Part shown: positions 35,751 through 39,272 of the stretch, piece by piece
Numbering within the stretch: position 1 is the stretch's first letter
Layout of the letters: each line of letters begins with the position of its first letter
IMG/VR virus record: IMGVR_UViG_3300023174_000050
Coordinates: 32,001 to 96,000 of that record
DNA from: a virus
Direction: 5' to 3' (one strand)
Length of the DNA stretch: 64,000 nucleotides
Program-made: the position numbers and the translations under genes
Notes under the pieces: model-generated
What the model was told of the DNA's origin: nothing
What the model saw: only the letters and a program-made list of their open reading frames with translations
Database searches by the model: none

Positions 35751-37661
35751 TTATGCAAATATCCTACCGTTATATCTAAAGAAATCATTTATAGCAGTAT
35801 TGGTATTAACAGGCGAACCTGATACAAAAGACATTCCCGAACCAGACCCGGAACTTGCCACAGTAGTATTATTATTTACTATAATCGGTGCAGCTGAAAT
35901 AGCAGTATTTTCTGTTAAAGCAGCATTTTCATTATCAGCAGTTTTTAGAATAGATGCCATTGGCATTGTATTTAAATTTTGAGAAACTTTTTCAGATTTT
36001 GGTTTTATATTTTCTGATTTTGATTCTTCTTTTTTATTTAAATTATAGTTTGGATTTCTTTTAATAAAATCTTGATTTTTTTCCAACCAATCTAATATTT
36101 TACTATTTTTAGATTCTCCTAAATAATTAGGGTCCTTAATATTAATGTCCTTATAACGTTGTTCTGCCCAGTCAGTTATTTCTTTTGGTAGTTTTTCTGC
36201 TCTTTGTACTCTTTGTACTCTTTTATACTCTTCTTCTTCGCCTGCAGCTGCCCCACCTCGACCTCCGCGCGGTTTTTGATTATCTAATTTTTCTTTATTT
36301 GGGACTTCTGTATTAATAGGTTTTCCGGAATTATTCAACGCATCAAGTTTAGTTGTCATTTCTTTTTCGAAAGACACAGAAGATTGTCCTTTTTTATTCA
36401 AGTAATCTAGATATACTGCTTCTACATTCTTTTGCACATTAGGTGTTAATACATTGCCCTTATCATCAGCAAGCGAACCATCGGCTTGTTTTTTATAATC
36501 TTTTCCGTTATAAGGAACAACCTCACCCTCAGGAACTTCTGCATATTTTTGTTTATTAGTTTCTAATCTACCTTCCGCTTGTCTACTGCCCTTTTGTTTT
36601 GCTGCTGCTTCTTTTTCAGCTTTTTCTTTTTTACGCATTCTATCTAAATCTTCTGGATCATCCATTGTAGACAATAATACAGGGGCAGCTAGTAATCCCA
36701 ATGAAGCACCTAATACTCTAGATGCAGCACCCGCTAAAGGTAAAGCGCCCGCCGCAGGAGCTGTACTTGATGGTACACGTTTTGGTGTTGGTTGATTTTT
36801 ATTGCCAGGGAGTTGTACTGGCGAAGTTCCAGGTACTCCTACGGGCATACGAGAATTTGCTTGATTATTATTTAATATTTCTGATAAAGTTTCAACCGCA
36901 TATTCTATATTATCTGTAAATGTTTTTCCTAATTTATCTAGCGGAGGGATTAATCTAGAACTTACTTCTAACCCAATAGATTTTGAGAATTTTACTATAT
37001 CCAAAGGCTCATTATTGTTAACTGTCTTTGTATTTAAAGGAGTTCTTTTATTTGGATTCTCAGAAGCAGGTTTTTCATTTGTTTTAACATCATTATCAGA
37101 ATCATTTGATGTTTTAATTATATTAATATCATCTTGTATTAAAGAAACACTAGTTAATGTTTTATCAGATAATGTTTTTAGGGATTTAAGATTTTCTGTT
37201 AGTTGTTCCTGATACTTATTTGTAACAACCATAGACTCCAGTATATTTTTTATTATATCCCTGTCATCGGTATTTTTAGATTTTTTATCTTTAGCTTTAT
37301 CATTCTTTGTATCGACCGGTTTAGTCGCTTCAGACATTTTTACTGTGTTTGGTTTTTCATTGCTTGTTTGGCTTGCAAAATATTCTCGAATATCACCCAT
37401 CGCTTTGCCAAATACTTCTGCGGAGTAATCTTTAAATTTTTCCAGATAATCATCAGAACTTTTTTTATTCCGTTCGACTCTAGGACTTGGAGTTTGTTTT
37501 TTACTTACCTTCTCATCATTTCTTCGTTGTCTGGTTATTTGATTGGTTAGACTCTGTAAAACTTTAGTTTGATATGATAACGTTTCGCCCTGTTGGTGCA
37601 AGGTTTCGAGTATCAGTCTTTCACTAGCTGACATAGCTTGAGGATTTGTCGGTAAGCTCAT
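35751..37661 (-). CDS. candidate tape-measure / gp29-like hub protein
   Basis: 636 aa, helical/low complexity, C-terminal IIVNNNT..S; lies downstream of gp26/gp51. Confidence 0.5.
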   Translation of the reverse strand: MSLPTNPQAMSASERLILETLHQQGETLSYQTKVLQSLTNQITRQRRNDEKVSKKQTPSPRVERNKKSSDDYLEKFKDYSAEVFGKAMGDIREYFASQTSNEKPNTVKMSEATKPVDTKNDKAKDKKSKNTDDRDIIKNILESMVVTNKYQEQLTENLKSLKTLSDKTLTSVSLIQDDINIIKTSNDSDNDVKTNEKPASENPNKRTPLNTKTVNNNEPLDIVKFSKSIGLEVSSRLIPPLDKLGKTFTDNIEYAVETLSEILNNNQANSRMPVGVPGTSPVQLPGNKNQPTPKRVPSSTAPAAGALPLAGAASRVLGASLGLLAAPVLLSTMDDPEDLDRMRKKEKAEKEAAAKQKGSRQAEGRLETNKQKYAEVPEGEVVPYNGKDYKKQADGSLADDKGNVLTPNVQKNVEAVYLDYLNKKGQSSVSFEKEMTTKLDALNNSGKPINTEVPNKEKLDNQKPRGGRGGAAAGEEEEYKRVQRVQRAEKLPKEITDWAEQRYKDINIKDPNYLGESKNSKILDWLEKNQDFIKRNPNYNLNKKEESKSENIKPKSEKVSQNLNTMPMASILKTADNENAALTENTAISAAPIIVNNNTTVASSGSGSGMSFVSGSPVNTNTAINDFFRYNGRIFA

Positions 37662-37858
37662 TCCTGGTTATTCCTTATTTGTCTTTGTTTCTTTCTTTCA
37701 TTTTCTTCATTTATATGATTAATAAGCATTGCCACATAAACATCTCTTTCCCATGGAATCATATTTTCTATTTCTGATAAAGAATAATTATGATTTTTTA
37801 CTAATGAAAAATTTAATTTAAAAAAATTATGAAGCCCCTCATGGGAAAGGGTTATACG
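37658..37858 (-). CDS. gp51: gp51-like ORF lacking its own upstream start; predicted -1 frameshift extension of gp26
   Basis: RITLSHEGLHNFFKLNFSLVKNHNYSLSEIENMIPWERDVYVAMLINHI...; first ATG only at 37762; not in ORF track. Confidence 0.75.
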   Translation of the reverse strand, partial: RITLSHEGLHNFFKLNFSLVKNHNYSLSEIENMIPWERDVYVAMLINHINEENERKKQRQIRNNQE

Positions 37859-38544
37859 AAAAAATTTTGTAGACCTTCCAAATGCATTTCATTATGTTCT
37901 CCGCATACTTCGCAATCTTTTTCTATATGCTGAACTAATTTTGGCATTGTTAAAAAGAAATTTTCTATAAGTTCAAATTGACTTTTAGAAAAAGAATTTA
38001 CAAATTCCGACAATTCTTCTTTAGTATATTCTTCATATATAGCATCTTCAGTATAAATAGATTTTATACAAGAACTTAAAAGATCTACAATTTTATCAGA
38101 TTTAAAATTTTGGTAAATATTAATCATTTCTTCAAATTTTGGATATCTCATTTCGACAATAATTTTATCAGTAATACTAATTTTTGTACTGTGTGCTGGA
38201 TCTTTTTCTACAGCAGCCTTTGTCAAATCTAATTCAAAAGGAATCTTATTATCACAACTATTGCAATCCAATGTTAATTCTACTACTTCAGAAATAGATC
38301 TAGCTCGCAAATTTAAGAATATATATTCTATATCAAAATTGGATAATGTATTCATTTTTAATTTATTGAATGTGCATGCATCAACTAACTCTGTTACAAT
38401 ACGATTAACCTCATCTGCACCTGATTCTAAAGTAGTTAATAATACTTTATATTCTTTAACCAAAAAAGGCCTAAATGTTATTTTTTCGTCGGTTGATGGT
38501 AAAATCAATTCATAAGTCGGTGTTTCTAATATAGGTAAAGTCAT
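37852..38544 (-). CDS. gp26: baseplate hub assembly protein
   Basis: MTLP.L.TPTYEL.LPS, FRPFLVKE.K, DIEYIFL.LRARS, C..C, LEGLQNFF. Confidence 0.9.
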   Translation of the reverse strand: MTLPILETPTYELILPSTDEKITFRPFLVKEYKVLLTTLESGADEVNRIVTELVDACTFNKLKMNTLSNFDIEYIFLNLRARSISEVVELTLDCNSCDNKIPFELDLTKAAVEKDPAHSTKISITDKIIVEMRYPKFEEMINIYQNFKSDKIVDLLSSCIKSIYTEDAIYEEYTKEELSEFVNSFSKSQFELIENFFLTMPKLVQHIEKDCEVCGEHNEMHLEGLQNFFV

Positions 38545-38555
38545 TTTCTAATTCC

Positions 38556-39272
38556 TTAGTTTGGAGTAAATATAAAACCATCAGTTTCAGGATCATATTT
38601 TGATTTAAGTGATGTATTATACCAATCATCTAAATATGATCCTTGAGATTTTCCTGATTTGATACCGAATTCTCCCCGAGGGACAATTTTAGGTTTTGGA
38701 TCAACTGGTGCATGAGGTATACGGTTTGTCAGATCGTGTATTGGAATCCAACGTCTATATGCAAACGTTACGCTTAATTTATGTACTTGATTTTGAGAAC
38801 TTTGATTTAAATCTAATAAAGATGTACTTCTTGGAAATGCATCTTCTAAAAATATTCCATATGTAAAATTATTTCTTTCATCAAGTTGTTCTATCAAAAT
38901 TCTATTGGAGATATATTCCTCTTGTCGATACGCAAAATATTGTATTGGATCAATAATTTTTCCCATCCATGCATCAAAAAATGCTTTTACCTTCATTTCT
39001 CTATCTAGGTTAAAAGTCATTGTCATGCCTTCTCCGCCATAATCGACATTGAATGGTCTTTGATAGTTTGGACCTGTTATCCTTTGTTGTCTAACACCTA
39101 TAATTCGTGCGGGAAAATTTGCAGATTCACAATAAAGACTTAGTCGTTGTCCATGTGTTCTAAAATCCATATATGGTGCAAGGCTAAGAGGAGGCGAAAT
39201 AGTTACCTTAAATCTATTTGGTTTAGCTACACCTTCTTTTTTTACTGTTGCAATAAATTCTTTTAGTGACAT
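38556..39272 (-). CDS. gp54: gp19-family tail-tube-like protein (probably gp54)
   Basis: KPNRF.V.I, CESA.FP, FFDAWM, L.DAFP, VTFAYR.W. Confidence 0.6.
   Translation of the reverse strand: MSLKEFIATVKKEGVAKPNRFKVTISPPLSLAPYMDFRTHGQRLSLYCESANFPARIIGVRQQRITGPNYQRPFNVDYGGEGMTMTFNLDREMKVKAFFDAWMGKIIDPIQYFAYRQEEYISNRILIEQLDERNNFTYGIFLEDAFPRSTSLLDLNQSSQNQVHKLSVTFAYRRWIPIHDLTNRIPHAPVDPKPKIVPRGEFGIKSGKSQGSYLDDWYNTSLKSKYDPETDGFIFTPN

Follow-up and report, generated by a model that had tools for sequence, protein, structure and literature searches.

A conserved slippery heptamer points to -1 frameshifting between gp26 and a gp51-like domain in T4-like phages

The gp26-like gene of an uncultured T4-like phage is very probably decoded in two ways, as a -1 slip of the ribosome on the heptamer T TTT TTC near the end of the gene would yield a long protein carrying a gp51-like domain next to the regular short one. 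The gene is located in a stretch of 64,000 nucleotides (the window), which comprises positions 32,001-96,000 of the IMG/VR record IMGVR_UViG_3300023174_000050, a genome of 190,131 bp that is rated complete. We favor the frameshift because the heptamer is conserved, because the open reading frame (ORF) in the -1 frame has no start codon and is coding from the slip site onward, and because the T4-type gp51 is the same two-domain polypeptide. A frameshift of this kind, including its likeness to the lambda proteins G and GT, had been proposed in a preliminary description of the sequence, and the present analysis follows up on that proposal.

The gp26-like gene (37852-38544, on the minus strand as are all features described below) encodes a 0-frame product of 230 amino acids, which belongs to the T4_baseplate family PF12322 and to phrog_150 ('baseplate hub'). 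It ends with CAA AAT TTT TTC GTA TAA, in which the heptamer occupies positions 37858-37864 within the 0-frame codons AAT TTT TTC and is separated by the single sense codon GTA from the stop codon TAA at 37852-37854. A TGA at 37891-37889 closes the -1 frame on its upstream side, and the first ATG, GTG or TTG of this frame is the ATG at 37762, corresponding to codon +34 past the slip, in front of which there is no Shine-Dalgarno (SD)-like run in the window. The extension in this frame (37658-37864) is recognized as a gp51-like domain by phrog_634, phrog_150 and BLASTP, adds 66 residues past the slip and terminates at the TGA at 37660-37658. A virtual fusion of both frames comprises 229 + 66 = 295 amino acids with the junction ..GLQNFF/RITLSHEG... 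The preliminary description had given the same positions for heptamer and gp26 stop codon, a -1 frame closed just upstream of 37888 and start-less until 37762, and a fusion of the same length, all of which is borne out by the sequence.

The gp26 3' ends of T4-like relatives, whose alignment had been suggested as a check, were compared in two sets, 80 IMG/VR loci in which gp26 is 53-97% identical and 80 more distant loci with 35-43% identity, which when pooled give 137 distinct sequences (35-97% identity). The heptamer is kept in 137 distinct loci, always in the form T TTT TTN (TTTTTTC in 121, TTTTTTT in 12, TTTTTTA in three and TTTTTTG in one), and in 130 of them the 0-frame stop codon follows after no or one further codon. 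Within the closer set, TTTTTTCG is found at the end of gp26 in every locus that is complete there, and the peptide FFR[LI]TLSHEGL.NY..LNFSL...YSL.E.E.M.PWER begins right at the slip, its part R[LI]TLSHEGL.NY..LNFSL being preserved with synonymous changes. In most loci of this set the -1 frame extends to codon +20/+21 or +34 before its first ATG appears, and in 94 of the 137 pooled loci the first ATG is found at codon +9 or beyond. Among the 80 more distant loci the gp51-like ORF was found in 79, always in the -1 frame, while the remaining one gave no match to the extension. The same layout is present in Pelagibacter phage Mosig, P-SSM2, DSL-LC03, KVP40, Aeromonas phage AsFcp_1, Sinorhizobium phage phiN3, Stenotrophomonas phage Mendera and Rhizobium phage RL38J1, and isolates with T TTT TTN belong to the Kyanoviridae, two genera of the Straboviridae (KVP40, AsFcp_1), Emdodecavirus, Menderavirus and the Pootjesviridae. 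One sublineage (L100, L104, L110, L117, L123, L138 and others) has a run of eight T followed immediately by the stop codon (AGT TTT TTT TAA), a 'shifty stop' that might also permit slippage of the polymerase.

The variation among the relatives further indicates that both the slip site and the region behind it are under selection. All ten bases of AATTTTTTCG show zero entropy in 59 members of the window's clade, with 0.7-1.8 bits at the flanking wobble positions. NAT TTT TTC is found in 64 of 66 distinct sequences, although codon usage in these genes is 79% for NAT, 72% for TTT and 28% for TTC; TTC is thus the minority phenylalanine codon and yet is kept in the heptamer. As judged from these comparisons, the T-run is conserved beyond what the coding of two phenylalanines requires, and far beyond chance. 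From the slip to codon +20, the entropy at the first, second and third codon positions of the -1 frame amounts to 7.9, 4.3 and 19.1 bits, respectively, and the start-less stretch has the same excess of third-position variation as the sequence further downstream. By this pattern, the start-less stretch is under protein-level selection in the -1 frame, which backs the earlier claim that gp51-like coding starts at the slip site.

The third line of evidence comes from the protein families. The gp26-like protein matches PF12322 with 196.6 bits (cut-off 24.5) over residues 9-229, and its gene is the only match to this family in the entire 190,131-bp genome. It also matches phrog_150 (E 1.8e-61) at profile positions 5-232 of 282. 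The -1 ORF, in turn, was assigned to phrog_634 ('baseplate hub assembly catalyst') with E 1.9e-26 and also aligns to positions 231-276 of phrog_150, and thus the two frames together cover a single family profile end to end. BLASTP additionally aligns the -1 ORF with the C-terminus of a T4-type gp51 (phage KIT01, residues 200-244, E 4e-8), and relatives of the -1 ORF carry a precomputed assignment to PF28602. Similarly, 100 retrieved relatives of T4-type gp51 have precomputed assignments to both PF12322 and PF28602, except for three short fragments with PF12322 only. The T4-type gp51 (250 amino acids) consists of a PF12322 region at residues 1-201 and a C-terminal stretch, spanning phrog_150 positions 13-282; the T4-type gp26 (207 amino acids) has PF12322 alone and ends two to three residues past the conserved FF. 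The virtual fusions of ten phages align to T4-type gp51 without gaps across the junction. Given the shared PF12322 domain, the gap-free junction and the end of gp26 close to FF, gp26 and gp51 of the T4 type are, on sequence grounds, a short and a long member of one paralogue pair.

In T4 itself, gp26 (208 amino acids) and gp51 (249 amino acids) are listed as 'hub assembly chaperones', and gp51 is needed for assembly of the baseplate hub and is not found in the virion (Leiman et al. 2010, PMC3004832, Table 2). The short form of the window resembles T4 gp26 in that both are full PF12322 proteins, and the predicted long form has the architecture of T4 gp51, PF12322 plus a C-terminal domain of the PF28602 type, in collinear arrangement. 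In contrast to the window, the T4-type phages KIT01 (a coliphage) and Aeromonas phage 60AhydR15PP possess a separate gene for each member of the pair. These paralogues, genes 26 and 51, are transcribed divergently, each has a start codon of its own, and a slip site is absent. The window contains a single gene, from which the same short/long pair would be made; the long form, in which the C-terminal domain of gp51 adjoins the PF12322 body, arises only if the frameshift occurs and hence requires recoding. A tree of PF12322 domains, made to date the gp26/gp51 duplication of T4, has long branches and an unresolved base and thus yields no order of events.

Upstream of the heptamer lies the SD-like sequence GGAAGGT (37873-37879), whose 3' end is located 9-10 nt before the heptamer and which, by its predicted pairing with the anti-SD sequence and by codon bias, is a candidate upstream stimulator. 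The duplex of the window's GGAAGGT with the 16S rRNA tail is predicted at -6.2 kcal/mol. The median for the 137 relatives is -6.3 kcal/mol, compared to a background of -0.5 kcal/mol, and 3.3% of the background windows reach this value. At the glutamate codon 14 nt upstream of the heptamer, GAG outnumbers GAA by 89 to 27, while gene-wide GAA prevails over GAG by 2492 to 690, and this preference for GAG creates GAGGG upstream of the heptamer. Judging from this bias, the SD-like GAGGG is under selection. It may stimulate the slip, and we prefer it over a downstream hairpin as the candidate stimulator. The heptamer itself belongs to the type H_HH.U_UU.Y, which ranks among the most efficient ones in E. 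coli (PMC4066793).

Several observations weigh against a ribosomal frameshift. The preliminary description had noted a short GC-rich stem past the heptamer, and a hairpin is indeed predicted by RNAfold and alifold at 37836-37851, with the arms CCCTT (37851-37847; CCCUU in the RNA) and GAGGG (37840-37836), five base pairs including one G-U pair, the loop TCCCAT and a 6-nt spacer (GTATAA) past the heptamer. Across 44 distinct clade sequences and seven distant phages, however, the consensus stem of five base pairs has only -2.6 kcal/mol, the z-scores are mostly insignificant, and covariation gives no support. The stem is built from the codons for Leu-Ser-His-Glu-Gly, which renders its role uncertain. 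A strong stem (z -4.1) is predicted for P-SSM2 only. On account of the short stem, its low stability and the mostly insignificant z-scores, we place no reliance on downstream RNA structure as a stimulator. In addition, FF belongs to a conserved protein motif, LEGLxxFF, and therefore a part of the conservation of the T-run is due to amino-acid constraint. An ATG is present two to eight codons past the slip in 40 of the 137 relatives (~29%), often as TAATG or TGATG; these are of the cyanophage type or include KVP40, phiN3 and Mendera, and because of this early ATG independent initiation is possible there, in contrast to the window. In Vibrio phage D531 (L089, 3700-3940), gp26 ends with CTT TTC AAG TAA and has no heptamer. 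The TAATG junction to the gp51-like ORF of D531 possibly represents coupling in place of a slip.

A further point on the same side is that an additional U inserted by RNA polymerase in the T-run would result in exactly the protein that a ribosomal slip would give. Such transcriptional slippage is conceivable at a homopolymer and more plausible in relatives with T7-T8 runs such as AGT TTT TTT TAA. The run of the window, however, has only six T, and 121 of the 137 sequences have TTTTTTC rather than a longer run. The run always stands in the X XXY YYZ phase, with the stop codon no or one codon behind and the selected SD-like element about 10 nt upstream, features which are relevant to the ribosome and not to the polymerase and hence count against slippage during transcription, which we consider very unlikely.

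An explanation without any recoding we regard as just as improbable. In this case ribosomes would produce the gp51-like domain separately, either re-initiating past the gp26 stop codon or starting at a non-canonical codon or at the ATG at 37762, and the T-run would be conserved for no other reason than its two phenylalanine codons. The early ATGs of some relatives, in TAATG and TGATG, form a classical layout for translational coupling, and public records annotate a separate short 'gp51'. Yet neither the window nor the 94 loci mentioned above have an early ATG, and the codons at this position (ATA, CTA, CTG, TTA) do not amount to a consistent start. Initiation at 37762 would lose half of the conserved domain. 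The start-less stretch is selected as protein, and the heptamer shows no variation at its wobble positions, contrary to what codon usage would lead one to expect. In T4, moreover, this domain occurs solely as part of a polypeptide with a PF12322 body.

That an indel error or a real mutation has broken a formerly in-frame gp26-51 gene has a negligible probability, since, although homopolymer runs are error-prone and two in-frame fusions on single contigs are known (one by a deletion, one by a loss of 2 nt in the run), the same phase and stop codon recur in 137 distinct sequences obtained from independent metagenomes and in cultured phages that were sequenced in different laboratories, a number that for practical purposes excludes the read error considered in the preliminary description. 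These two proteins on single metagenome contigs (P0154, P0156) were the only in-frame gp26-gp51 fusions found outside the T4 type. In one of them, gp26 is shortened by its final 20 residues and with them the second CxxC motif, while the other has lost 2 nt of the T-run. Being this rare, and either real variants or homopolymer errors, they were set aside as evidence for natural fusions.

Returning to the ribosomal frameshift, we infer the following course of events, comprising the slip, its rate, the contribution of the SD-like element and a chaperone function of the products. Most ribosomes would read AAU UUU UUC GUA and terminate at UAA, resulting in the short form of 230 amino acids. Some would slip by -1 with two tRNA-Phe on U UUU UUC, continue with CGU AUA ACC and add 66 residues, giving a long form of 295 amino acids with the domain order of gp51, a PF12322 body followed by a helical C-terminal domain. 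Two elements would likely promote the slip, namely the SD-like GGAAGG, which is situated some 10 nt before the heptamer and would pair with 16S rRNA in the manner of dnaX, and the stop codon one codon downstream; the small hairpin may contribute a little. By analogy to T4 gp26/gp51 and lambda G/GT, the short and the long form would act jointly, in a ratio set by the efficiency of the slip, in assembling the baseplate hub and the tape measure, and both would then leave the particle.

The order of genes at the locus, on the minus strand, is tube-like, gp26, gp51-like and a 636-residue protein. The tube-like gene (38556-39272; 238 amino acids) adjoins gp26 on its 5' side and is recognized by the tail tube profile phrog_45 with E 9.2e-30 and by phrog_3629 with E 1.8e-22; the genes that occupy this place in relatives bear the annotation tail tube monomer or baseplate tail tube initiator. 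Further 5' of it in the window are gp2-like and gp4-like genes, and gp48-, gp53-, gp32-, gp59- and gp33-like genes are found in the surroundings of the locus. The product of the gene on the 3' side (35751-37661) might be a tape measure protein, a lead suggested by its position, its size, low-complexity and Gly/Ala-rich hydrophobic stretches, predicted disorder and a language-model match. The Atlas model of this protein has a predicted local distance difference test (pLDDT) of 0.44; of the named clusters, T4_Tape_measure PF25671 comes closest at 0.89, which serves as a lead only. The protein has no match in Pfam or PHROG and no tblastn match among 50,697 phage records, and pairwise comparisons with T4-type gp29 and with the proteins at the syntenic position in six relatives revealed no similarity. 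Thus, while the previously described order of tube-like gene, gp26 and gp51 is backed by profile matches, its last member is tape-measure-like by these indirect features. The -1 ORF and the 636-residue gene share the sequence ATGA (37658-37661), in which the stop codon of the former and the ATG of the latter overlap; AGGA is found 4 nt upstream, and the ribosome binding sites of the phage genes in the window are of the AGGA type. Only frameshifted ribosomes would terminate at this start; those in the 0 frame end 190 nt earlier.

A further question is whether the gp26-like protein is related to known tail assembly chaperones (TACs). The AlphaFold2 (AF2) model (pLDDT 94.7) consists of an N-terminal alpha/beta domain and a domain bearing a zinc ribbon, which is split, with a distance of about 115 residues between its CxxC motifs at 94-97 and 211-214. 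Across 140 relatives C57, C211 and C214 show little or no variation, and T4-type gp51 retains C85, C88 and a CC pair at 185-186. A search with VIA-align using the gp26 model matched residues 1-93 best to 3fgx_B (Z 7.5; root-mean-square deviation (rmsd) 3.8, 85 residues aligned), the HK97 TAC 2ob9_B (Z 7.2; rmsd 4.1, 84 aligned) and YqbN 3klu_A (Z 6.9; rmsd 4.2, 85 aligned), which we take to be an XkdN-type chaperone; the next unrelated match scored 4.2. In these model-based comparisons a Z of about 7 can arise by chance, so that a common fold of gp26 and TACs is to be seen as a lead only. Foldseek with the gp26 model gave nothing at E <= 0.001 in the PDB, a profile search of PDB sequences with gp26 yielded nothing relevant, and the TAC families of Pfam matched neither gp26 nor any of 140 members. 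For the N-terminal domain of the T4-type gp51 model (pLDDT 93.3), VIA-align returned no TAC, and residues 205-250 gave generic helical-hairpin matches. In BFVD, the gp26 fold is common to many myovirus 'baseplate hub' proteins.

The mechanism proposed here is of a known kind, and, as far as the sequence evidence goes, it very probably operates in T4-like gp26/gp51 as well. A literature search, with subscription journals outside its scope, gave no report of a slip in these genes, in line with the initial impression that none had been described. Likewise, none of 13 public records that were examined has a joined coding sequence (CDS) at the locus, and several leave the ORF unannotated. The records of cyanophages and pelagiphages have a 'gp51' stub of 45-60 residues or no annotation. 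An unannotated gap of about 180 nt covers the gp51-like ORF in NC_026926.1 (913-1092; L173), NC_021072.1 (913-1094; L174) and OR003938.1 (2514-2683; L083); in two of these cyanophage records the next gene is gpD-like or gp5-like/endolysin-like, and not a tape measure gene. A frameshift would explain such stubs of gene 51, or 180-nt gaps, in hundreds of genomes, and a very large family, comprising 3,833 clusters at 50% identity, would have to be re-annotated, with ribosomal slippage joining the two parts of the CDS. As indicated by our data, a tail-chaperone frameshift is used by the greater part of the T4 superfamily, namely cyanophages, pelagiphages, KVP40-like phages, Aeromonas Angelvirus, rhizobiophages and many uncultured phages of lakes and the sea, and the two-gene layout of the Tevenvirinae type is the odd one. 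This frameshift of tail chaperones is a textbook example of recoding. The G-T frameshift has been reviewed as widely conserved 'except T4' (Atkins et al. 2016, PMC5009743). This reported gap among the long-tailed phages would be filled, and testable hypotheses would be available for T4 gp26 and gp51, morphogenesis proteins of unsettled mechanism.

Two established frameshift systems lend themselves to comparison. As in E. coli dnaX, the heptamer is preceded at about 10 nt by an SD-like element, here favored against codon usage, and a stem lies 6 nt downstream. The spacing between the SD-like element and the heptamer in the window also resembles that of dnaX, for which a spacing rule has reportedly been established by Larsen et al. 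(1994). In contrast to dnaX, the stem of the window has only five base pairs and is not clearly conserved, and the shift, which shortens the dnaX product, would lengthen the product here.

The second system is that of the lambda proteins gpG and gpGT, which are reported to be made by a -1 frameshift (Levin 1993; Xu, Hendrix & Duda 2004) that is conserved in the genes for tail assembly chaperones (reviewed in PMC5009743). As in lambda, the window has two overlapping frames between a tube-type gene and a long tape-measure-like gene, the heptamer precedes the stop codon of the upstream frame by a few codons, and both forms would share the N-terminal body; the absence of T4 gp51 from the particle is a further similarity. 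On the other hand, the heptamer is U UUU UUC here and G GGA AAG in lambda, the body encoded by the window is larger (230 amino acids), has a zinc ribbon and lacks sequence similarity to the TAC families of Pfam, and the role known from the genetics of T4 is hub assembly. Thus, of the equivalence to G and GT that had been put forward initially, the layout and its logic hold up, while homology of gp26 to known chaperones is no more than suggested. It might be hypothesized, with about even chances of being correct, that gp26 and gp26-51 are the counterparts of G and GT in the T4 superfamily, sharing their fold and holding a gp29-like tape measure while the C-terminal domain recruits tube or hub subunits, and that T4 is a derived case in which gene duplication has replaced the frameshift. 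If so, the exception made for T4 among frameshifted tail chaperones would disappear, and there would be a mechanism for gp51, an essential T4 protein that for decades has had no function assigned to it.

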